Assembly: GCA_025700225.1 (NCBI GenBank)
Contig: GCA_025700225.1_4339.1
Strand: one strand, 5' to 3'
Length of the DNA: 44,937 nt
From: a phage
Below are positions 3,187-31,689 of the stretch, piece after piece. The translations under genes and the position numbers were made by a program. Position 1 is the first letter of the stretch. Each line of letters opens with the position of its first letter. Under the pieces are notes generated by a model that did no database searches, was not told where the DNA came from, and saw only the letters and a list, made by a program, of their open reading frames with translations.

Positions 3187-3396
3187 TCACATTCCCGGCG
3201 GCTCAGGTAAAGGCATCCAGTGTGTTGGTTTCCACGAAGCTCCAGGAATTAGCCACCCATCATCAGCGTCAGGATGTCCCGGAATATAAGTAGCCCACTT
3301 CATACGCCAATCACCTTTATGCCCGAACTCCGTTGCTACGAGAACGCCCGTCATTTTAGGAGGCATCCGCTCACTACACTTAATCCACTTGCTCAT
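3187..3396 (-). CDS. DUF551-like phage protein
   Basis: 69 aa; W-rich pattern MSKWIKCSERMPP...THWMPLPEPP resembles DUF551 proteins. Confidence 0.65.
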   Translation of the reverse strand: MSKWIKCSERMPPKMTGVLVATEFGHKGDWRMKWATYIPGHPDADDGWLIPGASWKPTHWMPLPEPPGM

Positions 3397-3554
3397 AAAT
3401 CGCCTCTCTTCTCAAACGCACCAGCCATTACATTCGCACCAGCTTTCCACGCCCGCCACGCAAGACGAGTCTTAACGTTCAGGTACTCTTTCTTCGAACC
3501 CTTGTTAACGGGCAGCCCCTCGACGACGGCCCACCGTTCAAATGCTTCTCTCAT
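3393..3554 (-). CDS. small hypothetical protein (53 aa)
   Basis: ATG at 3554 preceded by GAGGA; stop overlaps next start (ATGA); fills gap between track ORFs. Confidence 0.4.
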   Translation of the reverse strand: MREAFERWAVVEGLPVNKGSKKEYLNVKTRLAWRAWKAGANVMAGAFEKRGDL

Positions 3555-3557
3555 AAC

Positions 3558-3749
3558 TTAGTAATCCTCGTCTTCTTCTTCCTGATACTCGATGAACGCA
3601 CCCAGGCGCTGCAACTCGGCACACGCCATAAAATACCCCAACGCATCGGCGCGTTCCGAATCTGTCTTAAACTCGGATAGTGGATAACGCTCATAGAACT
3701 TGTTAATCAAAAACGCCTGGTCGAATTTAGTAGCGTCGTAATTACTCAT
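3558..3749 (-). CDS. hypothetical protein (acidic C-terminus)
   Basis: 63-aa ORF in coupled array. Confidence 0.5.
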   Translation of the reverse strand: MSNYDATKFDQAFLINKFYERYPLSEFKTDSERADALGYFMACAELQRLGAFIEYQEEEDEDY

Positions 3750-3952
3750 AACTCAACTCCGTTATGTTTCATAAAACTGTTTAACTTATACCTCCGGTAC
3801 CGCGCTACCTCCTTAGCGTGGGCCAAATGCCACGACTTCCACGGAGTGTATTTCGCCTTTTCCCAGCATTCAACACCAAACTCTGCGGCGCGCAGACCAC
3901 CAACCAGACGCGCCAAACGAAATTTGTTATACGGACTCATACCAACCCCCAT
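3746..3952 (-). CDS. hypothetical protein
   Basis: 68-aa ORF, overlapping stop/start with neighbour. Confidence 0.5.
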   Translation of the reverse strand: MGVGMSPYNKFRLARLVGGLRAAEFGVECWEKAKYTPWKSWHLAHAKEVARYRRYKLNSFMKHNGVEL

Positions 3953-4010
3953 AACGCGTGCACCACATAAACGGCGCTGACAATTAAAATAAACGGGTAA
4001 TTATTCATAC

Positions 4011-4268
4011 TTAGTCCTTAACTCTTACCCAAAACTCACCACAATACCAACACCACATAAGATTCGGCGACTCACGCACCCACCCGTAGTCCTTACGCGC
4101 ACGAATTGGGATAATACCTTTAACGCAATAATAGCCTGTGCGCAGAAACTCAGGGTCGCGGGTCGCAGTACGCCACATATTATAAAACTGCGCCAACCCC
4201 GCACCGCGACGCATAACCCGCACCTTATGAAGGGTGTCCGTAACCTTTTCCAGTTCAGTGTTATTCAT
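4011..4268 (-). CDS. hypothetical protein (Cys/Trp-rich)
   Basis: ATG at 4268 preceded by GGGAGG; track ORF extends to a TTG at 4277. Confidence 0.5.
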   Translation of the reverse strand: MNNTELEKVTDTLHKVRVMRRGAGLAQFYNMWRTATRDPEFLRTGYYCVKGIIPIRARKDYGWVRESPNLMWCWYCGEFWVRVKD

Positions 4269-4471
4269 TAACGGCAACCTCCCTCAGAGTCGTCGGCGCT
4301 AGCATCATGATTCGATGCCGTTCGTAGTGCACGTAAAACTTTCAGCAAATCTTCACATGCCTCAGAAGAAACAGTTGAACCGCCTAATAAAGTAACCTTG
4401 TAATGGTTAACTATGAAATGCACTTCTTCCAGTTCATGATGTTTAAGTTCTTCAAATAATTCTTCCATCAC
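4268..4471 (-). CDS. hypothetical protein
   Basis: 67-aa ORF. Confidence 0.5.
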   Translation of the reverse strand: MMEELFEELKHHELEEVHFIVNHYKVTLLGGSTVSSEACEDLLKVLRALRTASNHDASADDSEGGCR

Positions 4472-4662
4472 TTCGCCCCTTTGAATTTAAAATTGTTGCC
4501 GATGAGTTCCATATCCTGCGCGTATAAAACGGTGAGATACGACCCTGCTAAAGATTTTGCGAAATAGACGCTACACTCTTTGTGGTGTACGAATGAAATA
4601 ACCGCTAGCTCTCCTGTCTCAGTAATCCTTACCAACTGACCCTTCTTAAACATAACCCTCAC
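4468..4662 (-). CDS. hypothetical protein, first gene of leftward early arm
   Basis: 64-aa ORF; RBS GAGGAG upstream; adjacent to divergent control region. Confidence 0.55.
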   Translation of the reverse strand: MRVMFKKGQLVRITETGELAVISFVHHKECSVYFAKSLAGSYLTVLYAQDMELIGNNFKFKGAK

Positions 4663-4675
4663 TCCTCTGTCTCGT

Positions 4676-4721
4676 TTCGATAAGTGAATAGTAGCCTATT
4701 ATATTGGTATGTGCAAGCGAA
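4676..4721. promoter_or_regulatory. promoter-operator motif copy in divergent control region
   Basis: tcgataaGTGAATAGtagcCTATTATATTggtatgtgcaag; near-identical to the copy at 37505-37556 in the opposite orientation. Confidence 0.55.
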
Positions 4722-12374: not shown

Positions 12375-12518
12375 ATGATTTTCTGTAAGCACGTATACCG
12401 CTATATAAAACCGCTTCCGTGGTACGCGGATGAGTACCGGCATGTGTGGATTTGCCGTGATTGTATGAAAATAAGATTCAGCGAAACGAAGGCACTGGAT
12501 TTAAGGAAAAAGAAATGA
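12375..12518 (+). CDS. small basic hypothetical protein (47 aa)
   Basis: ATG preceded by AAGGGTCGAAATA motif; stop overlaps DNA polymerase ATG (ATGA). Confidence 0.35.
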   Translation: MIFCKHVYRYIKPLPWYADEYRHVWICRDCMKIRFSETKALDLRKKK

Positions 12519-14698
12519 ACCGCTACTTATACTTAGACTTTGAAACCTTCTCCGAAGCCGATTTGAAGAAAGTCGGTTCTTATGCTTACGCCGAACATCC
12601 GACTACCGAAGTGCTTATCTGCACCTATGCCTTTGATGATGAACCGGTTCAGGTATGGGACTGCACTGACGGCAGCGATATGCCGGGAGATTTGCACCGC
12701 GCGTTACGCCGTCTGGTGAAGCCAAACAGCCGTATCAAGATGGTCTGGCACAACGGCTCAATGTTCGACCGCCTCATCATGAAGAACTGCTGGGGCTTTG
12801 ATATCCCGGTCAGCAATACCATCGATACGATGATTTGGGCGTTTCGTCACGCGCTGCCAGGTTCACTTGACGCATTGTGCGAAGTGCTGGGTGTATCCGC
12901 CGACAATGCGAAAGATAAACGCGGCAAGGCGCTGATTCAGCGTTTCTCAAAACCTACGCCGAAGAACTACAAAATCCGCCGCTACACCGCCGAAACACAC
13001 CCGGACGAGTGGGCGCTGTTCATCAAGTACGCCGTGAGCGACATCACCGCGATGCGTGAAGTCTTTCATAAGCTGCCGCGTTGGGGTAACTCCGAGTTCG
13101 AGGACCGCGTACTGGAACTGGACCAGTTAATCAATGACCGCGGGTTTAAGGTTGACGTTGCACTGGCGGAAGCCGCGATTGAAGCCGTAGAGAAACACAA
13201 GGCGCAGTTGCAGGAAGAAGCTCAGCGTAAATACGGCGGCTCACTTACCGGTAAAGACTTCCTGCCGATTCTGCGTGAACTGGCTCCTGCGCATCGCATA
13301 CACAACGCGCAGAAGTCGACGCTTAACGACCTGCTGGCGGACGAGGATTTACCGGACGACGCGCGCACGATTATCGAAATGCGCCTCGGGGCTGCGTCTA
13401 CCGCGTCAACGAAATATAACCCGCTGCTGTTAGGTCGCTCGTCGGACGACCGCCGCCGCGGTTGCATCCAGTACGGCGGAGCTAAGCGTACATTACGATT
13501 CGCCGGTAAAGGCTTCCAGCCGCAGAACCTGGCGCGCGGGTACTATCATGACGATGAGCTGGATAAAGGGATTTCTGCGTTGCTGAAAGGACGTGCTCAT
13601 CGTCGGTTTGATGTAGCCAAGCTAACGGCGTCAACAGTGCGTAGCTGCATCATCCCGGAAGCCGGGCATAAGTTTGTTGTTGCCGATTACTCTAACGTGG
13701 AAGGCCGTGGCCTGGCGTGGTTGGCGGGCGAAGAAACCGCGCTTGATACGTTCCGCGCCGGGCTGGATATTTACTGCGTAACGGCTGGCAAGATGTTTGG
13801 CCTGGAACCAGATTACATTAAGAAAGAACGTAAAGACTTACGCCAGATTGGTAAAGCCTGCGAATTGGGCCTTGGGTACGCTGGGGGTGTCGGGGCTTTC
13901 GTTCAGTTCGCCAAGAACCTCGGCCTTGACCTCGTAGACATGGCTAAGACAATGGCGGGTACATTCCCCGACCATATCTGGGCCGCTACGGCACGGGGTT
14001 ACGAGTGGGCTCGTATTCAGGAAGCTAAGCGCCCCCCGCGTCCGGGTGAAAAGGACGACAGACCATCATATATCCTTGATAAGAAAGTCTGGCGTACATG
14101 CGACGCGATTAAGCGTATGTGGCGTGAGTCTCACCCGGAAACAGTAGCTTTCTGGCGAGATATTGAAGACGCGGCTATGGCAGCTATCCGCAATCCAGGT
14201 AAAGAGTTCACCGCAGGGCCGCGCGGTGTTAAGTTTTCGCGTAACGTAGAAACAGACAACAACGGCAACAAAGTCGCCGGTTGGTGGCTGCGCATGACGT
14301 TGCCGTCCGGTCGCGTTATGTCTTACCCGGGTGTAGGATTGAGCGTGTCGAAAGAGACAGACGAAGACGGGAAGGTGTCTACTAACGTGCGCATCAAGTA
14401 CCAGGGTGAAAACCAGTTAACCCGTCAGTGGGGCTTCCAGTACACCTACTCCGGTAAACTCGTGGAAAACTGTACGCAGGCGCTGTGCCGTGATTTGCTG
14501 GCCAATGCGCTGCTGAACGTAGAGGCAAACGGCTACCCGATTGTACTTCACGTACACGATGAGATTATCTGCGAGACGCCAGATTTACCGGAATACAATG
14601 TCACAGAGCTTGAGCGGTTGATGTGTTCGCTGCCTGAGTGGGCTGAGGGGTTCCCTCTTGTGGCAGAAGGTGCGGAGATGAAGCGTTATGCTAAGTAA
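12515..14698 (+). CDS. family A DNA polymerase with N-terminal 3'-5' exonuclease domain
   Basis: about 727 aa; DnaQ-like Exo I motif YLDFETFS; polymerase motifs C-terminal (VHDEIICE); start taken at ATG 12515 with AAGGA RBS (track ORF begins at 12461). Confidence 0.88.
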   Translation: MNRYLYLDFETFSEADLKKVGSYAYAEHPTTEVLICTYAFDDEPVQVWDCTDGSDMPGDLHRALRRLVKPNSRIKMVWHNGSMFDRLIMKNCWGFDIPVSNTIDTMIWAFRHALPGSLDALCEVLGVSADNAKDKRGKALIQRFSKPTPKNYKIRRYTAETHPDEWALFIKYAVSDITAMREVFHKLPRWGNSEFEDRVLELDQLINDRGFKVDVALAEAAIEAVEKHKAQLQEEAQRKYGGSLTGKDFLPILRELAPAHRIHNAQKSTLNDLLADEDLPDDARTIIEMRLGAASTASTKYNPLLLGRSSDDRRRGCIQYGGAKRTLRFAGKGFQPQNLARGYYHDDELDKGISALLKGRAHRRFDVAKLTASTVRSCIIPEAGHKFVVADYSNVEGRGLAWLAGEETALDTFRAGLDIYCVTAGKMFGLEPDYIKKERKDLRQIGKACELGLGYAGGVGAFVQFAKNLGLDLVDMAKTMAGTFPDHIWAATARGYEWARIQEAKRPPRPGEKDDRPSYILDKKVWRTCDAIKRMWRESHPETVAFWRDIEDAAMAAIRNPGKEFTAGPRGVKFSRNVETDNNGNKVAGWWLRMTLPSGRVMSYPGVGLSVSKETDEDGKVSTNVRIKYQGENQLTRQWGFQYTYSGKLVENCTQALCRDLLANALLNVEANGYPIVLHVHDEIICETPDLPEYNVTELERLMCSLPEWAEGFPLVAEGAEMKRYAK

Positions 14699-15365: not shown

Positions 15366-15557
15366 ATGAAACACGAATATGACCGCAAGCCCGCACGTGA
15401 CATCGTACCTGGGGACATGATTTTCAACGTTAAGACGCGCCAGCCTGTTGCCGTTGATACCGTGTTCGTCGAGTCGAACGGTAAACTGGTTATCGAGGAC
15501 GTAACAGGTAACGTTACGGCGTTCGGGCGTAAAGAACTGGTGCTGGTGGCAAAATGA
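15366..15557 (+). CDS. hypothetical protein
   Basis: 63-aa ORF with RBS AAGGA. Confidence 0.5.
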   Translation: MKHEYDRKPARDIVPGDMIFNVKTRQPVAVDTVFVESNGKLVIEDVTGNVTAFGRKELVLVAK

Positions 15558-16237
15558 TTGTCTGGTCATTGTTTGACGGTTCGGGCCTTATGGCCCAACC
15601 GTGGGCAGAAGCGGGCCATACTTGCTATTGTTTCAACTACGACGGTGCCGACCACGGAGACTACGCACGATTGGGCGCAAAAGTTGAACATGAAAATATC
15701 CACTATATAAACGCGTGGATTGATAATAAATTCGACTTCGACGTTGCTCCTGATATTATTTTCGCGTTCCCTCCGTGCACAGATTTAGCCGTTAGCGGCG
15801 CGGCTCATTTCGAAACGAAGCGGAAGAAGAATCCGACGTTCCAGGTAGAGGCTGTGATTACATGCAAAGTGGCGGCGCGTCTGGCTAAAAAGTACAACGT
15901 ACCTTATATGATTGAGAACCCGGTTAGTGTTCTTTCGTCTCTATGGCGTAAGCCCGACTACGTGTTCAATCCGTACGAATACGGCGGGTATTTACCGGAA
16001 GACGACACGCATCCAATGTTCCCTGAATACATAAAACCTCGGGACGCGTACCCTAAGAAGACATGTATTTGGGCCGGTAACGGTTTTGTTATGCCCGTTA
16101 AATCATGTGTTGCCGTTGGTGATGGGTACGCAGACCAACACAATAAATTGGGCGGTAAATCAGTGCGGACAAAAACAATCCGCAGCCTTACTCCGCGGGG
16201 TTTCGCAAAAGCAGTTTACGAGGCAAATCATGTCTAA
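15554..16237 (+). CDS. minimal DNA (cytosine-5) methyltransferase-like protein
   Basis: 227 aa; motif I LFDGSG, motif IV-like FPPCTD (catalytic Pro-Cys), motif VI-like ENP, C-terminal RSLTPRGF; too short for a normal target-recognition domain. Confidence 0.65.
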   Translation: MIVWSLFDGSGLMAQPWAEAGHTCYCFNYDGADHGDYARLGAKVEHENIHYINAWIDNKFDFDVAPDIIFAFPPCTDLAVSGAAHFETKRKKNPTFQVEAVITCKVAARLAKKYNVPYMIENPVSVLSSLWRKPDYVFNPYEYGGYLPEDDTHPMFPEYIKPRDAYPKKTCIWAGNGFVMPVKSCVAVGDGYADQHNKLGGKSVRTKTIRSLTPRGFAKAVYEANHV

Positions 16238-17654
16238 GTTTCAAAGGCGCGAATACCAGAAGCTCATGACTTCGTTCATGTTGCGACACCATCGCTGCAA
16301 CATATGGGCAAGCATGGGTGCCGGGAAGACTGGCAGCGTACTGTGGACGTTAAACCGCCTGTTCCGCAACGGGCAACTTACGGACGACGACCGCGTGTTA
16401 ATACTCGCCCCATTACGCGTTGCATCAGGCACGTGGCCCGCCGAACAAACTAAATGGGGTTTCCCGTGTCTGCGTGTCGTAGATGCGACCGGTTCAGAGA
16501 AGCGCCGTATAGCGGCGCTGGAGTCTGACGCCAACGTGGTGTGCACTAACTACGAAGTTATCGAATGGCTGATCGACTATTACGGCAAAGACGACTGGCC
16601 TTTCACTGTTATCGTTGCCGATGAAAGCACGAAGCTCAAATCGTTCCGTAGCCGTTCTGGTGGCAGCAAGCGGGCAAAGGCGCTCAGTAAGGTCGCGTTT
16701 GGTAAGGTTAAGCGTTTCATTAACCTGACAGGTACACCGTCGCCAAACGGTCTCAAAGACCTGTGGGGCCAGAACTGGTTTATAGACGCGGGCGAGCGCC
16801 TGGGGTCTTCATATACAGCATTCACCGACCGCTGGTTTAACTCAGTGCAGAAAGGAAAATCAGCAATGGCGCGCGAGTATCATGCGCGCCCGGGCGCAGA
16901 TAACGAGATTCACCAGAAGATGAAGGACATTAGTCTCACGATTGACGCTGCCGAGTGGTTTGGGTGTGAAGCGCCGATTATTGTACCGGTTGAAATCGAC
17001 CTGCCGAAGAAAGCGCGCCAGGCGTACATCGATATGGAGGAGAAGTTATTCGCGGAACTGGAGAGCGGAGAAGTTGAAGCGGCTAACGCTGCGGCGAAGA
17101 CGTCGAAATGTTTGCAGATTGCATCCGGTGCTGTATATGTGTCAGGGCCAGACGGCGAAGCAACGAAAGACTGGGAGAAAGTGCACGACACGAAACTGGA
17201 TGCGCTGGAGTCAATTGTTGAGGAGTTGCAGGGTGCGCCGTTACTGGTGGCCTATCAGTTCAAGCACGAACTTGAGCGCATCCTTAAGCGATTCCCGCAG
17301 GCGCAGGCGTTCGCAAAAGGCTCTAAGGGTAATAAGCAGATGGAGGCGTGGAACCGTGGTGAAATCGAGATTTTGTGTGTGCATCCTGCGTCAGCTGGCC
17401 ACGGCCTCAATTTACAGGACGGCGGGCACCATCTGGCGTTCATTTCACAAGGCTGGAACCTTGAGCACTATTTACAGGTTGTCGAGCGTATAGGCCCGGT
17501 ACGCCAGAAGCAGGCAGGCCACGAGCGACCGGTGTTCCTGTATCACATCGTTGCTAAAGACACGCTGGACGAGGTTGTTGCCGCGCGTACAGACGAGAAG
17601 AAATCGGTCCAGGAAGAGTTGCTTAATTACATGAGGAGACGAGGTAAGAAATGA
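16230..17654 (+). CDS. SNF2-family helicase
   Basis: about 474 aa; Walker A ASMGAGKTGS, DExx box IVADESTKLK, helicase C region; start at ATG 16230 overlapping the methyltransferase-like stop. Confidence 0.85.
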   Translation: MSKFQRREYQKLMTSFMLRHHRCNIWASMGAGKTGSVLWTLNRLFRNGQLTDDDRVLILAPLRVASGTWPAEQTKWGFPCLRVVDATGSEKRRIAALESDANVVCTNYEVIEWLIDYYGKDDWPFTVIVADESTKLKSFRSRSGGSKRAKALSKVAFGKVKRFINLTGTPSPNGLKDLWGQNWFIDAGERLGSSYTAFTDRWFNSVQKGKSAMAREYHARPGADNEIHQKMKDISLTIDAAEWFGCEAPIIVPVEIDLPKKARQAYIDMEEKLFAELESGEVEAANAAAKTSKCLQIASGAVYVSGPDGEATKDWEKVHDTKLDALESIVEELQGAPLLVAYQFKHELERILKRFPQAQAFAKGSKGNKQMEAWNRGEIEILCVHPASAGHGLNLQDGGHHLAFISQGWNLEHYLQVVERIGPVRQKQAGHERPVFLYHIVAKDTLDEVVAARTDEKKSVQEELLNYMRRRGKK

Positions 17655-24678: not shown

Positions 24679-26991
24679 CTACTTAAAGCCAGGTGCGTTT
24701 CTTGTAGCCTTCCTCGCTTTCGATATTTTGCTGTTGCTATTCTGCAAAGAGGCGGCCACTTGCTCTTCTATGATGATACGTAAACGTCCTTCATCGTCCT
24801 GTTCAACGCTGGTGTTGCCAATTTGTGCGCTGGTGTTATTTATAATGCTGATATTGGCTGGGCCGGAAGAAGACCCGTTTTGCCCCATAATCTCTTTCAT
24901 TTGCTGCGCGGTGCGGACACGTGACGCCCCCGCTGGCATAATTACCTCAGGCTTACCGCGTTCTGCGATGGTAGATGCTTGCCCTGCGGATAACTGACCA
25001 CCCTGCTCACGTGCCGACCGGATAGCTGAAACCTGCGCCATGCCCGCACCAACGGCAGCGGCAGCGGCTACAGGGGCCAGGAACGGGCCAACTACAGGGA
25101 TAGCCGCCGTGGACTTGTACGCCTCGATAGCTGCGGTGTAAGTGGCTATGGTGGCCTGTACGATAGCGAATGCCTTATACGCGCCAGAGGCCTCGCCCAA
25201 CGCAGACCCGATGTTTGAGGCCATGTTACCGAAGGCGGTTGCCGTTGCGTCGGCACGCTTGGTTGCGTATTGCTCATTGATGGCGTTAAGCGCGGCCTGA
25301 TACTGCTTCTCACTAATAAGCCCCTGCTCACGGTACTTATCAGCTACCGCCAATTTCTGCTGTTCCTGGATGTCGAGAAGCTCAAGCTCAGTAGCGTTCT
25401 GGCCCATAATCTGAGCCATGAAGTCGTCGCCTTTCTGTTGCTTTTCCTGGGCTTCTTTCTGGCGTTTGTCCAGTTCATCTTGTCTGGCCTGCTCGGCTGT
25501 GAGCATAATTTGAGTTTTGGCGTTTTCGTACTGCTGCTGGCTTATCGTTCCGGCGCGGTTGAACTCCTCCAGTTTCGCCAGTTTCTGTTCTTCTGCCGCC
25601 GTGATACGAGAAATTTCGTCTCCAGTTGTGCGGTCAACCGTAGCGAGGAAATCTTCCGCCGCTTTTTTCTGACGTTGTGCTGCCGTTTCTTCACGTTTGG
25701 CCTGCGCCGCCAGACGTTTCTCGTTCGATTTAGCCTCTCGGTCTGCCTTCGCTTTTTCGGTCGCGTCGATGCGAGCGATGTCTTGCTGCGCTTCCGCATC
25801 CCGGGCCGCGTTATACGCGGCTATCTGCTCTTTGGTGACAGCGTCACGTTTAGCGAATGCCTGCTTATCAAGTTCAGCTTGCGCCCGGATACGCTCACGG
25901 TCGCTTAAGATGGCAATTTGCTGATTCTTAACGATAGCTTCGTTCTGTTCCTGGAATCTCTGCGTGGTTGAGTTAACGTTACGACCGAGATTCTTTTGGG
26001 CCTCCGCGGCGGCATTTGCTGACTTCTCTGCGTTTTCCAGTGCCGTTGCATTTTTGTTGGCGTTGTCCGTCAGGCGGATAAGTTCCGGGTTCAACTGTTT
26101 TGTGTTACCTAGCCAGTCGGTAAACACATCGGCGATGCGACGGGCATTCTCGGCAGTTGGCGCTTTGTTAAACGCGCTCTGCGCCGCTATCATCTCCAGC
26201 GCCTGGTCACGGTTAACCCCAAACTTACCGCTAAGCTCTGCGATATTCTGCGCCAGCATGTTGACGCCTACGATGTTACCCTCGTAAGTGCCCCCGAGTT
26301 TTTCTAACGTGTCGCCTACATCCGCACCTTTAGAGACCAATGCATCATACTGGCTGATAGCTGATGCTGTGGATGCTTTCCATGTCTCCCATGATTCTGC
26401 GTCCTCACGAACAGCTTTAGCTGTTTGCTGTGCGATAAGGTCTGCGTTAGCCTTAGCCAGAGCAAGCTGAGTCTCCGCCGCTTCTCGGCTTATTTGGGTA
26501 AGCTGTATGAGGCCGTCTGTCAGTTCGAGAGAGCCGGACGCCGTTTGCTGGAAGGTGTCTTTTAACTGTTTCTGCGCGGCTTCGAGGTCTTTTGAACTAC
26601 CTTCTGCTTCGGTTAGCGATTTGTACAGGACACCGCCAACAGCCGACGCAAGCGCAATTACAGCCCCAAGCACCGCCCCACCAGGGCCAAAAGCACCCGC
26701 AAGCTGCGAGCCTTGTTGCCCGATTGCTACGAATGCGGACGTACCGGACTGCAACTGGACAACCATGTCCTGTACCTGGAAGCCAACCTGCCCTGCGGCG
26801 TTACGGAATTTAGCGAAACCGTCAGAGGCCGCTTTAGAGGTAGCTGTGTTAACTTTATTAACATCTGGGGTCAGCTTGTTTACTGCGGTATCCGCACGGT
26901 CTGCAGACGACGTCATAGCGTCAAGCTGTTTGGCAGCTACGTCAGCACCTTCTGTTTTTACTCTGGCGATTAGGGAAGCCGTATCAGCCAT
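24679..26991 (-). CDS. tail tape measure protein
   Basis: about 770 aa; Ala/Gln/Lys-rich coiled-coil throughout; ATG at 26991 preceded by GAGGG (track ORF begins at a TTG, 27006). Confidence 0.85.
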   Translation of the reverse strand: MADTASLIARVKTEGADVAAKQLDAMTSSADRADTAVNKLTPDVNKVNTATSKAASDGFAKFRNAAGQVGFQVQDMVVQLQSGTSAFVAIGQQGSQLAGAFGPGGAVLGAVIALASAVGGVLYKSLTEAEGSSKDLEAAQKQLKDTFQQTASGSLELTDGLIQLTQISREAAETQLALAKANADLIAQQTAKAVREDAESWETWKASTASAISQYDALVSKGADVGDTLEKLGGTYEGNIVGVNMLAQNIAELSGKFGVNRDQALEMIAAQSAFNKAPTAENARRIADVFTDWLGNTKQLNPELIRLTDNANKNATALENAEKSANAAAEAQKNLGRNVNSTTQRFQEQNEAIVKNQQIAILSDRERIRAQAELDKQAFAKRDAVTKEQIAAYNAARDAEAQQDIARIDATEKAKADREAKSNEKRLAAQAKREETAAQRQKKAAEDFLATVDRTTGDEISRITAAEEQKLAKLEEFNRAGTISQQQYENAKTQIMLTAEQARQDELDKRQKEAQEKQQKGDDFMAQIMGQNATELELLDIQEQQKLAVADKYREQGLISEKQYQAALNAINEQYATKRADATATAFGNMASNIGSALGEASGAYKAFAIVQATIATYTAAIEAYKSTAAIPVVGPFLAPVAAAAAVGAGMAQVSAIRSAREQGGQLSAGQASTIAERGKPEVIMPAGASRVRTAQQMKEIMGQNGSSSGPANISIINNTSAQIGNTSVEQDDEGRLRIIIEEQVAASLQNSNSKISKARKATRNAPGFK

Positions 26992-27256
26992 CTTCTCTGC
27001 CCTCAAATATTCCGTCTAAGCCCATGATAACCTCGGCTTCGAACAAACTTATGCCGTAACCGGCGACATCACGAAACGCTACCAAATCTTGCCATTTGAG
27101 CGCATCGCGCGGGATTATAACGATAGTATCATCTGTTTCGCGCTGTAGGAATTTAATGGCACGGTATTTCTCGAACACGTCGATAAGAGAAACGGGGCAT
27201 TCAGGCCCCGTCGCTTCTTTCATCTGCGGTTCTTTAATCACGCCCATTGCAATCAA
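26984..27256 (-). CDS. tail assembly chaperone T-like segment (probable frameshift extension of G)
   Basis: 90-aa ORF in the -1 frame relative to the upstream chaperone; overlaps tape measure start. Confidence 0.45.
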   Translation of the reverse strand: MIAMGVIKEPQMKEATGPECPVSLIDVFEKYRAIKFLQRETDDTIVIIPRDALKWQDLVAFRDVAGYGISLFEAEVIMGLDGIFEGREDG

Positions 27257-27345: not shown

Positions 27346-27762
27346 TTACTTTTCAGATAGTTTCTCGCGGCTATCGGTGTGATGCTTAACTACGGCCTCC
27401 GCCAGCCCACTGTACTGGTCGAATAGGTTAGCCAGCGCCTCTTTGCTGAACGGTTCGTCGAATGACCAACCGGTGACGATTTCCACGGCAAGCTGCTTGT
27501 TCAGGTCCATCACCCGCCAACCCTTCTCATCGTTATAGCGCGCCCAGTTATTCAGCGCCTCGCACTCTTTATCTAATGGCGCAAGTTCTTCCGTAAGGCG
27601 TCGAATTGCCGTTGTGTAGGCGCGGCCTGCGCGAACACCGGCATCGCAATCGGGGCCGATAACCTGCAGCCATTCACCGGAATCTTTACCACTCGGCAGA
27701 AGGATGGGCATTTTAGTGCCTACAGCATGGCGGTCAGCAAAATAAAAATCAGAAAGTTTCAT
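27346..27762 (-). CDS. tail assembly chaperone (G-like)
   Basis: 138 aa; immediately upstream of the T-like ORF and tape measure. Confidence 0.55.
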   Translation of the reverse strand: MKLSDFYFADRHAVGTKMPILLPSGKDSGEWLQVIGPDCDAGVRAGRAYTTAIRRLTEELAPLDKECEALNNWARYNDEKGWRVMDLNKQLAVEIVTGWSFDEPFSKEALANLFDQYSGLAEAVVKHHTDSREKLSEK

Positions 27763-27867
27763 TCTTTAATCCTTTGGTTAAGAGGTTACTGGTTAAGATT
27801 AACGCGCCAGACGGGAACCACCCGCTTTTCGTGTGCGACACTAGGCGCAAACTTATTCTAGCACACT

Positions 27868-27905
27868 ACTTGCACACCCCAATATAATAGGGCACTATTC
27901 ACCTG
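27868..27905. promoter_or_regulatory. promoter-operator motif copy (TTGCAC...TATAAT rightward; TAATAG-N4-CTATTC palindrome)
   Basis: 35 nt upstream of the plus-strand island gene at 27924; reverse reading faces the chaperone gene. Confidence 0.55.
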
Positions 27906-27923
27906 TAACTTACTGAGGAAATA

Positions 27924-28253
27924 ATGATGCGTAAATTAGTATTAGCTCTGGGGTTTATGTCTTTTGCTGCTTTCGGGTCCCCGTGCGAACAGGTATTTAG
28001 TGAATCTGTTCTTATGACTTCTGGCGTGCTTGAGAAAGCCGACATTACTATCGTAAAGGCATTTAGGGACTCTACAGTTCGTGAATGCGAGGCCGCCGTA
28101 GAGGTCGGTAAATCAGGCCTACCTCCGCAGGCCGTAACATACACGGTAATACGTTCGGTAGAGAAAAACGGGGACGCGTTTTACAGCCTACTGACAGCCA
28201 CCCGCCTGCAAATGGTAGTGACCGGATGGGCAATAGGCGCAGAAAGTAAATAG
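27924..28253 (+). CDS. secreted/periplasmic hypothetical protein (signal peptide)
   Basis: 109 aa; N-terminus MMRKLVLALGFMSFAAFG; two Cys; RBS GAGGA. Confidence 0.6.
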   Translation: MMRKLVLALGFMSFAAFGSPCEQVFSESVLMTSGVLEKADITIVKAFRDSTVRECEAAVEVGKSGLPPQAVTYTVIRSVEKNGDAFYSLLTATRLQMVVTGWAIGAESK

Positions 28254-28318
28254 TCGCCTTTATTTAAATGAATGCACTGTGGTTAAATAGGACAAATCCT
28301 AAACACGAGGAAGTAGGC

Positions 28319-29449
28319 ATGGCCCAGAAGAAAATAACCGACGAACAGTTACAGGAAGAATTGAACGCCGGGATGAAGAATATCGATATCGCCCGTAAAT
28401 ACGGAATCTCAGACCGCGTTATCCGAATCCGTAAAGCGAAGCTGGCGAAGAAAGGTGTAGGCCACGGGCGAGACGTAAGCCACCTTGTACCAGACGGCTA
28501 CAAAATTAAAGGCACGTCGTCTCTGGTGGACGAGTTCGGCAACACCAAATTGCAGTGGGTTAAGACCGACACTGATGCCGAACGGCAGGTCGAGTTGATG
28601 AAAGCTGTAATCGAGGGCATGAAGTCAGAGATTACGCCCGTTGCGCCAGTTAAGGCCGCCAGGACTAAACGCGACGACAAGCTGCTTAACCTGTACACCG
28701 TGTCTGATTTCCATCTCGGCATGTTAGCCTGGGCGGACGAGAGCGGCGACGACTGGGATATGAAAATCGCGGAGGACTTATTTTCACGATGGTTTGACGC
28801 GGCATTCCAGAAAGCACCGGATGCCGGTACGGGAGTTATTAATCTTCTTGGCGACTTAGCTCACTTCGATAGTCTGGATGCCGTTACGCCCGCAAGCGGT
28901 CATGTCCTTGACGCTGACACGCGCTACCAGAAACTTGTTCGCTACATGATTCGCATGGTGCGCCGTGTCGTCGATATGGCACTGGTTAAACATAAGACTG
29001 TTCGCTTGCTTATAGTTCAGGGAAACCACGACGAATCCGGGATGATTTGGCTGGCGGAGATGTTTAGCACACTGTATGACAACGAGCCTCGTGTATTCGT
29101 CGATACGTCGCCGGATGTATATAAGATGGTGCAACACGGCAAAACTACGCTGTTCTTTCACCACGGACATAAGGCACGCTTCGACGCAATCGAGCCTGTT
29201 ATGATTGCCAAGTTCCGCAAAGCGTTCGGCGAGAGCGTCTACAGTTACGCTCATGTAGGCCACCTTCACCACCAGAAGATTGTCGAAAGCCGTAACATGG
29301 TTGTTGAACAACACCGCACCCTGGCTGCTAAAGACGCCTACGCCTCACGCGGCGGATGGATGTCAGGACGAAGTGCAAACGTAATTACTTATAGCGACCA
29401 ATACGGCGAGGTTGCTCGTTTAACTATTTCACCGGAGATGTTGGGATGA
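28319..29449 (+). CDS. calcineurin-like metallophosphoesterase with N-terminal HTH-like region
   Basis: about 376 aa; SDFHLG (DxH), GDLAHFD (GDxxD), GNHDE, FHHGH, GHLHH; N-terminus IDIARKYGISDRVIRIRKAK; start at ATG 28319 with GAGGAAG RBS. Confidence 0.78.
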   Translation: MAQKKITDEQLQEELNAGMKNIDIARKYGISDRVIRIRKAKLAKKGVGHGRDVSHLVPDGYKIKGTSSLVDEFGNTKLQWVKTDTDAERQVELMKAVIEGMKSEITPVAPVKAARTKRDDKLLNLYTVSDFHLGMLAWADESGDDWDMKIAEDLFSRWFDAAFQKAPDAGTGVINLLGDLAHFDSLDAVTPASGHVLDADTRYQKLVRYMIRMVRRVVDMALVKHKTVRLLIVQGNHDESGMIWLAEMFSTLYDNEPRVFVDTSPDVYKMVQHGKTTLFFHHGHKARFDAIEPVMIAKFRKAFGESVYSYAHVGHLHHQKIVESRNMVVEQHRTLAAKDAYASRGGWMSGRSANVITYSDQYGEVARLTISPEMLG

Positions 29450-29934
29450 AAGATATTGTGATTTTCGATTTAGACGGGACATTGGCGGATGGTACTCATC
29501 GTTTACACCTGCTGCCAAAAGACAACTACGGCGAAACCTGGGCGTGGAAGCCTTTTAACATGGCCTGTAAAGATGATGCGCCGATATATGACAACATTCA
29601 CTTGTGCAACACGCTGTGGCACACGGGGATAACCATAATCATACTTACCGGGCGAAGCGACGACGCCGAAGAAGAAACCCGGGAGTGGTTACACAAAAAC
29701 AATGTCAAGTTCGACGTTCTGTTAATGCGTAGCAAACATGACAACAGAAAAGACATCGTAATTAAAGAAGAAGTGTTGCGCGCTATCGGGTTAGAAAGAA
29801 TCTTGTGCGCGTTCGACGATTCGCCCGCGGTGATTAAGCATTTCCGCAGCTTAGGAATCACTACGCACGCGGTTACGGAATACGACTGCAACGGTACTTC
29901 TACACACTTAAAATCACACGGGGGCGATAAATAA
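29446..29934 (+). CDS. HAD-family phosphatase resembling the T4 Pnk 3'-phosphatase domain
   Basis: 162 aa; motif I FDLDGTL, motif II ILTGR, Lys motif, FDDS; C-terminal stretch RKDIVIKEEV...FDDSPAVIKHF parallels T4 Pnk as recalled from memory; ATGA-coupled. Confidence 0.75.
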   Translation: MKDIVIFDLDGTLADGTHRLHLLPKDNYGETWAWKPFNMACKDDAPIYDNIHLCNTLWHTGITIIILTGRSDDAEEETREWLHKNNVKFDVLLMRSKHDNRKDIVIKEEVLRAIGLERILCAFDDSPAVIKHFRSLGITTHAVTEYDCNGTSTHLKSHGGDK

Positions 29935-30488
29935 TGGCTAAGGTAATCATTCTTAACGGCCCTGCAGGTTGCGGTAAAGATACGCTCGCTATGGCGCTGG
30001 TAGAAATGGGCTTCGCGAAAGGAACAACCAGCTTCAAGAATCCAATGTTCAATATCGCTCTCGCGGCATTAGGGCCGGATGCCTATCACGAGTTCCTCGA
30101 TGGTTACGACGACCGGGCGCGGAAAGAAAAGCCAGAAGATTTTCTAAACGGTCTGTCGCGACGTCAGTTCATGATTGCTATCTCTGAACAATTCATTAAA
30201 CCGGTATTTGGTAGTGAGTATTTCGGCAAGTATCTAGCCGAAAACTTGCCCGACGGCGACGAAATTTTCGTAGTGTCCGACGGCGGATTTGCCAGTGAAG
30301 TAGCCCCTATCGTCGCCGCAGGGCATGATGTGCGAATCGTTCGCCTTCATCGTGACGGGTACACGTTTGACGGTGATAGCAGGGGATATCTGTACGATGT
30401 TAGTGGTGTAAAAGATTACGAAGCCTACATCATACCCGGTGACGTTAAATCTAACGTTATAGACATCGCTTTAAAATTAGGTTTGTAA
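29934..30488 (+). CDS. P-loop kinase, dNMP-kinase-like (T4 gp1-like)
   Basis: 184 aa; Walker A GPAGCGKDT; overall pattern resembles phage deoxynucleoside monophosphate kinases; TAATG-coupled. Confidence 0.7.
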   Translation: MAKVIILNGPAGCGKDTLAMALVEMGFAKGTTSFKNPMFNIALAALGPDAYHEFLDGYDDRARKEKPEDFLNGLSRRQFMIAISEQFIKPVFGSEYFGKYLAENLPDGDEIFVVSDGGFASEVAPIVAAGHDVRIVRLHRDGYTFDGDSRGYLYDVSGVKDYEAYIIPGDVKSNVIDIALKLGL

Positions 30489-30516
30489 GAAAAAGGCCCC
30501 GAGAGGGGCCTTAGTT
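30488..30516. terminator. bidirectional intrinsic terminator
   Basis: stem aaggcccc/ggggcctt, loop gaga; T-rich flank on both strands; between kinase stop and major tail protein stop. Confidence 0.75.
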
Positions 30517-31689
30517 TTATGCGTAGGTGATACGCTGGATAACGATAGACGACTGATACTGGTTGCCGGTGGCCTGGCCTTCAATAGACTGAGTGATTGA
30601 CTCTGGGCCGCCAATCTCAGGTGTAACCGCCGTAAGCTCCGCGCGTTTCAGGCTGAATGACATAGCCCCGTTTACGCCCGCCAGAATAGAGTTAATCTCT
30701 ACCTGTTGCTCGTTGATAAACTTCTGAATCATAGCCATGTCGTACAGCTTACCCGCGATGGAAAAGGTGTTAGCCGCACGGCCTCGTTCAACGAACGCTA
30801 CGTTACTGTTGCCGAGTTCGAACTGGGCGGAGGCACCGTTATTGTTGGTGATGGTCAGCGTGTCGCAACGCAACGGCGACGTACCATCGAACACTGACAC
30901 ATCAACCGAAGAGAACGGCTCGTCGGTGAAGGTGACCGTAGAGAAGTCGGATCCAGCTGGAGGCGCGGTAAGAATCTCCTGACTCAGGCCGATGAACGGG
31001 AAGCTGCCGGTTACCATCGCGTTAACCGCCTGCTCGATGGTAAAGCCAGAGATTTCCACACCTTTGGTCAGCATGTACGCGTCAGGGTTTCCGCACTGGC
31101 CTTTGAACCAGGTCAGGATAGAGAACGTTTTACACGCGTTGCCAGTTTCCAGCTTGTCGCCGGTTTTAGCATCGGTCGTTACAGTTTCTGCGGTAAGCGT
31201 GTGCTGAATACCTGCACCCGTTACGACAAGAGCGGAAACTTCGGTAACGATGAACGGCTTAGCGTTATCTCCAGTCAGACCGGTGAACGCAATCAGGTCA
31301 CCCACTTCAACACCGTCGGTAATGAAGCTGCCAGATGCGCGGGTGAACGTTTTACCGGCCGGCGCTACGGTAATAGAGGCTCCAGTAATCTCGACGCCCG
31401 CCTGCCATGTAGAGGTCATTGCGCCTGCAAGGAAATCATCCTGACTTTTCGAGCTAAGCTCGATGGCGTATTCACCAGTTACCTGTTTGTTACCTGTGCG
31501 GATAGACGTGGTTTCACGGCTGCCGTCCAGTTCGTTGGAGGTCAGCGCGTCGCGCGTTACCGCGGGAACACCGCCAGTATTGCGCAACGGCGACCATACC
31601 GGGGAAGTCGGTGTTACGCCCGGGGTAGTTTCCGCCACATAGAATTGCGCGGTGTTCGCGCCCTTAAAAGGAGTTGTAGCCATATTCAC
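30517..31689 (-). CDS. major tail protein
   Basis: 390 aa; Thr/Gly-rich; positioned after head-tail connector genes and followed by a strong terminator. Confidence 0.65.
   Translation of the reverse strand: MNMATTPFKGANTAQFYVAETTPGVTPTSPVWSPLRNTGGVPAVTRDALTSNELDGSRETTSIRTGNKQVTGEYAIELSSKSQDDFLAGAMTSTWQAGVEITGASITVAPAGKTFTRASGSFITDGVEVGDLIAFTGLTGDNAKPFIVTEVSALVVTGAGIQHTLTAETVTTDAKTGDKLETGNACKTFSILTWFKGQCGNPDAYMLTKGVEISGFTIEQAVNAMVTGSFPFIGLSQEILTAPPAGSDFSTVTFTDEPFSSVDVSVFDGTSPLRCDTLTITNNNGASAQFELGNSNVAFVERGRAANTFSIAGKLYDMAMIQKFINEQQVEINSILAGVNGAMSFSLKRAELTAVTPEIGGPESITQSIEGQATGNQYQSSIVIQRITYA

Follow-up and report, generated by a model that had tools for sequence, protein, structure and literature searches.

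What would a metallophosphoesterase (MPE), a HAD phosphatase and a P-loop kinase do together inside the tail operon of a siphophage, on the strand opposite to it? The question is raised by a 44.9-kb stretch of phage DNA (contig GCA_025700225.1_4339.1, called the window here), which makes up all or nearly all of the genome of a Kagunavirus-like siphophage of E. coli (Guernseyvirinae). Its long minus-strand structural block is interrupted by a sole plus-strand unit, an island of four open reading frames (ORFs) at 27924-30488, oriented opposite to the tail operon and parallel to the replication genes. We propose, with a probability of about 0.45, that the three enzymes would constitute a salvage line leading from DNA to deoxynucleoside triphosphates (dNTPs), with substrates and a cooperation that we infer from the sequences. 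The four ORFs lie between tail genes at the coordinates that an earlier note on this DNA, made from the letters alone, had given them:

27924-28253, plus strand: ORF1, 109 amino acids (aa)
28319-29449, plus strand: MPE, 376 aa; the open frame reaches up to 28268
29446-29934, plus strand: HAD phosphatase of the PNKP 3'-phosphatase type, 162 aa
29934-30488, plus strand: P-loop nucleotide kinase with the T4 gp1 (dNMP kinase) fold, 184 aa

The coupling of the enzyme genes by start/stop overlaps, also read from the letters, is real at both junctions, with ATGA at 29446-29449 between the MPE and HAD genes and TAATG at 29932-29936 between the HAD and kinase genes.

The MPE displays the metal-binding motifs of the calcineurin-like superfamily (DxH / GD / GNH(D/E) / H / GHxH). 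A direct homologue search retrieved near-identical sequences only, and the diversity for the alignment came from a representative-library search, in which the family comprises 4,624 representatives at 50% clustering; the protein occurs in 2,043 phage records. Among 54 diverse homologues, D130, H132, G178, D179, N236, H237, H282, G314 and H317 are invariant and H315 nearly so (at least 90%), which leaves seven of the eight catalytic residues invariant, H315 being the eighth. The conserved catalytic residues uphold the family assignment of the earlier note, but two of its details changed: (i) the motif given as GDxxD reads GDLAHFD, and (ii) the start is most likely the ATG at 28319 and not position 28268, because a Shine-Dalgarno sequence, GAGGAAG, precedes it and the relatives are called at 376 aa. 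The protein scores below the Pfam gathering threshold for both Metallophos and Metallophos_2.

The AlphaFold2 model of the MPE (pLDDT 91) comprises an N-terminal three-helix helix-turn-helix (HTH), a module of a β-hairpin and a helix, and the phosphoesterase core. The HTH spans aa 8-44, and profile matches of the GerE, FixJ and sigma-70 region 4 kind hint likewise, so that model and profiles agree with the HTH-like N-terminus suspected before. Foldseek places the cyclic-nucleotide phosphodiesterase Rv0805 first, followed by DP1 and Mre11; PDB sequence searches, with the single sequence or with a profile, gave nothing significant beyond HTH matches. On the modelled fold, and especially given the HTH, the MPE would best be read as a nuclease. 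It differs from Mre11/SbcD and from DP1 in the N-terminal HTH and the β-hairpin/helix module, both unique to the MPE, in a sequence similarity that is insignificant, and in its partners. Mre11/SbcD acts with a Rad50/SbcC-like ATPase, of which there is none among the replication genes of the window or in the annotated sister genome, and the archaeal PolD proofreading exonuclease DP1 acts with a polymerase, no such partner of the MPE being found in the genome. Two narrower roles were considered and rejected: a recombination exonuclease, as a PD-(D/E)XK exonuclease and an annealing protein are already encoded, and a proofreading subunit, as the polymerase has its own exonuclease region and T1-like phages carry the MPE without a polymerase.

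The HAD protein matches PF25109 (HAD_PNKP) with an E-value of 6.5e-21 and 75.4 bits against a cutoff of 27.6, and phrog_415 with 1.2e-66. Its sequence matches in the PDB are Pnkp1 (4xrp) and T4 Pnk (1ltq and 5uj0). Aligned with the phosphatase half of a T4-type Pnkp it shows 31% identity (E 4e-16), and the DLDGT, SGRES, RKDD and VDDR motifs of the latter are matched by DLDGT, TGRS, RKD and FDDS. By these matches it is clearly a predicted PNKP-type 3'-phosphatase with intact catalytic residues, and the parallel drawn earlier with the 3'-phosphatase domain of T4 polynucleotide kinase stands.

The kinase finds its nearest solved structure in the dNMP kinase of T4 (gp1, PDB 1DEK; dNMP, deoxynucleoside monophosphate), shares the gp1-like fold and falls by profile into the PHROG dNMP kinase family. 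PDB sequence and profile searches did not retrieve T4 gp1 and gave nothing significant beyond P-loop matches; gp1 has 241 aa as against 184 aa here, and the identity is only 20%. A Pnk-type 5'-kinase domain tied to the phosphatase, as in the bifunctional Pnkp of the T4 PseT type, was not found. As modelled, the kinase is structurally gp1-like and not Pnk-like, an observation added by this analysis; it agrees, together with the PHROG family, with the initial description of the kinase as closer to phage dNMP kinases than to polynucleotide kinases. Compared to T4 Pnkp/PseT, the island preserves a homologous phosphatase domain with aligned motifs, but its kinase is a separate protein of another P-loop family, the order is phosphatase and then kinase, and the RNA ligase that partners the T4 enzyme has no counterpart. 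The HAD and kinase genes are slightly richer in A+T than the genome, with a G+C content of 46.6% (HAD) and 48.1% (kinase) against 50.7% for the genome, which is only weak evidence of recent acquisition.

The three enzymes are found together well beyond this genome. A concatenated three-protein query retrieved contiguous MPE, HAD and kinase genes in the same order from 460 phage records, so the arrangement is more than chance; HAD and kinase genes lie side by side in 744 records. The lineages that carry the trio include (i) Kagunavirus, (ii) Drexlerviridae (Webervirus), where it closes the replication operon, with the lysis genes next in line, and (iii) the SP6-like podoviruses Era103 and MR4 (gp26-28 in each), where it stands between exonuclease/endonuclease genes and a DNA ligase gene. 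The trio of Drexlerviridae and SP6-like phages, annotated as "DNA repair exonuclease - PNK - dNMP kinase", is homologous to that of the window (MPE 41-53%, HAD 53-60% and kinase about 48% identical) and shares its order and the start/stop overlap of HAD and kinase, which is conserved across lineages. The setting differs, being in or near replication or nuclease-ligase genes there and an isolated opposite-strand unit in the tail operon here. The MR4 proteins (MPE 53%, HAD 53% and kinase 48% identity) are closer to those of the window than is the Webervirus MPE (41%). The pattern points to transfer between unrelated phages, with the trio exchanged as a cassette among siphoviruses and podoviruses, which is new in this analysis.

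Three further arrangements bear on how tightly the enzymes belong together. In the Aeromonas phage phiAS7, HAD and kinase are preceded by an MPE of another family (phrog_221, no match to the A1 profile); since a non-homologous MPE occupies the position, functional linkage is favoured over shared descent, and the sequences suggest that a non-homologous MPE can fill the trio position, also new here. In the large Vequintavirinae phage CR8 the kinase adjoins an NT5C-type deoxyribonucleotidase, a thymidylate synthase and a ribonucleotide reductase, a nucleotide-metabolism context which by analogy supports, only indirectly, that the kinase would phosphorylate dNMPs to the diphosphates (dNDPs). Finally, the genes also occur apart: Warwickvirus has a solitary MPE gene ahead of its lysis genes, Dhillonvirus has one ahead of that for the small terminase, and several genes separate HAD from kinase in some Drexlerviridae (Gp09 and Gp14 of TLS). 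As a separate observation, a gene for a 216-aa protein lies directly upstream of the homologous dNMP kinase gene in phage IME267 (locus 3336-3986); by eye its C-terminus resembles a sigma-factor-type HTH, which echoes the HTH fused to the MPE of the trio.

Within the Guernseyvirinae, the closest relatives of the island (ORF15-18 of K1H, and those of L AB-2017, Golestan and SHAK7858) share its position, orientation, MPE-HAD-kinase order and terminator, at 84-88% nucleotide identity and up to 98% identity of the MPE protein; their first gene varies between the 109-aa secreted protein and an Imm type, and some relatives are without HAD and kinase. By megablast, 167 deposited phage records match a 4.3-kb stretch around the island, the best of them at 86-88% identity and 100% query coverage (Escherichia phages L AB-2017, G AB-2017, K1H, M01 and others). 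One matching record, OR594183.1, has the taxonomy line Autographiviridae; Kayfunavirus and "EcoM" in its name, and its gene content and 88% identity to the window are those of a Kagunavirus-like siphovirus; the taxonomy line is probably a deposit labelling error.

The boundaries of the island, namely the promoter region and the terminator, are conserved across Kagunavirus and Jerseyvirus, and the MPE is the one constant gene of the slot across the relatives compared. The first gene is the secreted protein in the window, K1H, ER1 and fFiEco02, and an Imm-type gene in SHAK7858 and S528. Downstream of the MPE, the Kagunavirus fFiEco02, whose MPE is 97% identical, has two ORFs of 66 and 76 aa in place of HAD and kinase, the Jerseyvirus ER1 has one 76-aa ORF, and S528 has the ORF of ER1 together with an Ant/Rha-type protein. 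HAD and kinase were not found in the Jerseyvirus genomes examined; in the Jerseyvirus-dominated Salmonella phages the MPE is present in 373 records and the pair in 68. With a candidate promoter and a terminator of its own and cargo that differs among close relatives, the region has the traits of a moron or accessory slot, and a fixed insertion slot with a constant MPE and exchangeable cargo is its best explanation. The MPE anchors this slot and HAD plus kinase form an exchangeable coupled pair, which is likewise new in this analysis. The fFiEco02 locus (3628-4709) also includes an HNH-like gene of opposite orientation, which separates the island from the tail tube gene.

This variation in cargo, which the earlier note had left to a synteny comparison, contradicts its picture of one self-contained four-gene unit, as ORF1 and the HAD-kinase pair vary independently of the MPE. 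Its remark that the arrangement could not be assigned to a known system does not hold either: the island is a standard feature of Guernseyvirinae, annotated in more than 150 deposited relatives, among them K1H, whose record has carried notes citing SETP3, Era103 and T1 homologues since its deposition; the trio is common in Drexlerviridae and occurs in some Autographiviridae, and a nucleotide-supply hypothesis is in print (PMC13164509).

Nucleotide salvage, one of the two options named at the outset, is the best explanation here on the grounds of enzyme families and context. The line would run in three steps: (i) the MPE, as a DNA-directed phosphoesterase, would break DNA, presumably that of the host, into 5'-dNMPs; (ii) the 3'-phosphatase would strip 3'-phosphate ends, which would otherwise block exonucleolytic digestion and priming, or would dephosphorylate 3'-phosphorylated products; and (iii) the kinase would turn dNMPs into dNDPs, from which the host nucleoside diphosphate kinase (Ndk) would complete dNTPs. 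Besides the linkage of the trio and the intact catalytic residues of the PNKP-type HAD, three considerations lead to this reading: the structure and family of the kinase together with the nucleotide-pool genes around it in CR8; the position of the trio in SP6-like phages, directly after exonuclease and endonuclease genes of the host-DNA-degrading type; and the separate provision for recombination by the PD-(D/E)XK exonuclease and the Gp2.5-like protein. The literature offers related cases. T1 and TLS break down the DNA of the host and recycle its nucleotides, the responsible enzymes having been left open (PMC11447400), and the MPE of a mycobacteriophage degrades host DNA (PMC12287305). For Drexlerviridae, a 2026 study put forward an enhanced nucleotide supply as the effect of the PNK and dNMP kinase genes behind the "DNA repair exonuclease" (PMC13164509); the salvage idea is, accordingly, already published for that family.

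Several points weigh against salvage. A 3'-phosphatase is not obviously needed for the recovery of 5'-dNMPs. HAD and kinase are dispensable, being absent from the Kagunavirus with the 97% identical MPE and from the Jerseyvirus genomes examined, and present in 68 records as against 373 with the MPE; the solitary MPE of Warwickvirus and Dhillonvirus may therefore have a role of its own, unrelated to the pair. In the literature searched, host DNA degradation is not documented for Guernseyvirinae, and what is written on the function of the MPE or the trio in Guernseyvirinae and Drexlerviridae comprises annotation-level statements only.

The same observations feed the rival that survives best, in which there is no joint function at all: independent genes would share a permissive slot, HAD and kinase being separate nucleotide-pool enzymes and the MPE serving, for example, late-infection DNA processing or regulation through its HTH. 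The MPE that stands alone in two genera, the HAD and kinase genes set apart in some Drexlerviridae and the differing cargo of the slot all fit such a scattering. We nevertheless hold it unlikely in view of the 460 genomes, drawn from no fewer than three unrelated lineages, in which the trio is contiguous and keeps its order, of the 744 records with adjacent HAD and kinase, and of the non-homologous MPE that takes the same position in phiAS7.

A less probable alternative is the healing of nucleic-acid ends. HAD and kinase would act as a split Pnkp and the MPE would trim ends or open 2',3'-cyclic phosphates, repairing phage DNA, or tRNA and other RNA, with the 3'-phosphate and 5'-OH ends left by host nucleases, before a host ligase or RtcB seals the break. 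The membership of HAD in the PNKP phosphatase family, with all catalytic positions of T4 Pnkp aligned, speaks for this alternative, as do the tight coupling of HAD and kinase, reminiscent of a split two-domain enzyme, and the DNA ligase gene directly after the trio in MR4 and Era103; the MPE superfamily, moreover, counts repair nucleases among its members, along with the phosphatase domain of bacterial Pnkp. However, the kinase is of the gp1 type and not of the Pnk type, the Era103 ligase gene beside the trio belongs to the backbone, its annotation noting similarity to SP6 gp24, and neither the main ORFs of the window nor the annotated sister genome contain a DNA or RNA ligase, in keeping with what had been read from the letters. 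Without a ligase in the genome, break healing in the style of T4 is unlikely, and RNA repair by Pnkp plus RNA ligase was rejected for the lack of a ligase and the kind of kinase.

Of similarly low standing is a role in counter-defence, in which the kinase, alone or together with its two partners, would rebuild dNDP and dNTP pools under attack by dNTP-depleting defences or remove a dNMP alarm, or the MPE would destroy cyclic-nucleotide immune signals. The bacterial PUA-Calcineurin-HAD defence converts dNTP to dNDP and on to dNMP when triggered by m6-dAMP from the degraded host chromosome (bioRxiv 10.64898/2026.01.15.699771), which is the mirror image of the chemistry supposed here. In that defence (PUA-Calcineurin-CE-HAD) a calcineurin-type phosphoesterase and a HAD phosphatase acting on deoxynucleotides are likewise combined; it is nevertheless a host system with a PUA sensor and without a kinase, and its likeness to the island is functional only, compared at the superfamily level. 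The top Foldseek match of the MPE to Rv0805, the presence or absence of HAD and kinase as accessory cargo among close relatives, and the Imm and Ant/Rha-type genes hosted by the same slot are further points for counter-defence. Against it, the preprint mentions no kinase and the phage counter-defence described there consists of DNA-mimic proteins (bioRxiv 10.64898/2026.01.15.699771). Moreover, no PADLOC defence model resembles any of the four proteins, and an MPE with a DNA-binding HTH, found in about 2,000 phages and often alone, fits better with a core DNA function than with a dedicated part in anti-defence.

Base modification is hardly credible: the hypermodification of phage DNA does involve P-loop kinases annotated as dNMP kinases, hydroxymethyl-dCMP is a substrate of T4 gp1 itself, and the kinase of the island might phosphorylate a modified nucleotide or DNA base as in thymidine hypermodification, but neither the window nor the annotated sister encodes a hydroxymethylase, a thymidylate-synthase homologue, a glycosyltransferase or any modification enzyme other than a Dam-type methyltransferase, and hypermodification was rejected on that account.

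The salvage line thus keeps its place as the preferred reading of the enzymes; the slot that holds them is delimited by the following elements and neighbours:

27346-27762, minus strand: tail chaperone gene, flanking the island
27870-27898, plus strand: candidate sigma-70-type promoter, with -35 TTGCAC (27870-27875), a 17-nt spacer and -10 CACTAT (27893-27898)
30493-30512, both strands: two-way intrinsic terminator, shared by the island (plus) and the tail tube gene (minus)
30517-31689, minus strand: tail tube/major tail gene, flanking the island

A promoter-like motif had been placed at 27868-27905. The pairing of TTGCAC with TATAAT (27883-27888) as a sigma-70 promoter is ruled out by a spacing of 7 nt, and what remains of the claim is the conserved candidate with the 17-nt spacer, which lies within the same range. 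In two Kagunavirus and two Jerseyvirus relatives the CTTGCA of the -35 region and the TAT of the -10 element are invariant, the equivalent of the latter being TACTAT in K1H and TATTAT in the Jerseyviruses. The -10 element of the window itself fits at 3/6 positions only, and a promoter scan did not list the candidate; TTGCAC-17 nt-CACTAT is a plausible but weak candidate for the island promoter, with transcription predicted to begin near 27905. The bidirectional hairpin terminator said to close the island is well substantiated. It is called on both strands and consists of an 8-bp stem with six G-C pairs and T-runs on both strands, with a folding energy of -19.8 kcal/mol (z = -5.46 against shuffles), and its GGCCCC-N4-GGGGCC is invariant in four Kagunavirus and Jerseyvirus relatives, even where the preceding gene is a different one.

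Upstream of the island promoter, an intergenic block at 27804-27847 (GCGCCAGACGGGAACCACCCGCTTTTC...GGCGC) is near-invariant between Kagunavirus and Jerseyvirus despite diverged flanking genes. It can be folded into a closing stem with two small hairpins, with a z of only -1.8, and the equivalent block of the Jerseyvirus ER1 has one compensatory pair (GCGTC/GACGC). The role of the block may be that of a terminator-like element of the plus strand or of a leader to the chaperone/tape-measure transcript on the minus strand. A G+C-rich, two-way terminator-like hairpin lies at 27191-27212, inside an ORF (26984-27256) downstream of the tail chaperone gene, the counterpart of which is annotated in K1H and fFiEco02 within a joined or frameshifted chaperone product.

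ORF1 is predicted to be a secreted (periplasmic) protein. Its N-terminus is hydrophobic, as its reading as a signal-peptide protein had implied, and it has two conserved cysteines. It matches phrog_14165 (5.8e-54), a PHROG without annotated function, and is 60% identical to the gene in the equivalent slot of the Jerseyvirus ER1; no Pfam, NCBIfam or PADLOC match was obtained. In SHAK7858 and S528 the slot is filled by an Imm superinfection-immunity gene, to which ORF1 corresponds in position only, without a match to the profile PF14373. ORF1 stands outside the enzyme set and probably acts on the envelope or in superinfection exclusion.

The plus-strand replication block comprises a helicase-primase, a PD-(D/E)XK/DUF2800 exonuclease, a Gp2.5-like annealing protein, a DNA polymerase, a Dam-type methyltransferase and a helicase. 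Within the polymerase ORF (12461-14698), aa 464-557 match the PHROG "endonuclease" phrog_93 (1.1e-13), which suggests an inserted endonuclease-like segment. A small ORF at 9756-10112 matches Pfam Phage_ProQ_C_like with 30 bits against a cutoff of 27 and may encode a phage RNA-chaperone-like protein. The methyltransferase ORF (15554-16237) and the longest helicase ORF (16086-17654) share about 150 nt; the true start of the helicase is probably further downstream, because the PHROG match begins at residue 38.

The island in this window is a commonplace example of a cluster annotated before, and what it may mean reaches to the phages that share it. The MPE is present in about 2,000 phages and the trio in 460, with many candidates for therapy against E. 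coli, Klebsiella and Salmonella among them. A bolder idea, which we consider doubtful, is that the trio is a horizontally mobile three-enzyme cassette working as one machine: it would be either the apparatus by which T1-like and Jersey-like phages degrade the host chromosome and reuse its nucleotides, or an answer to defences that deplete dNTPs or sense dNMPs, reversing the chemistry of the bacterial Calcineurin-HAD dNTP sink. If the MPE does dismantle the host chromosome in T1-like phages, this would settle the question left open in the TLS and T1 literature (PMC11447400), and it would also matter for the risk of transduction, given that transduction is higher with T1 mutants impaired in the degradation of host DNA.

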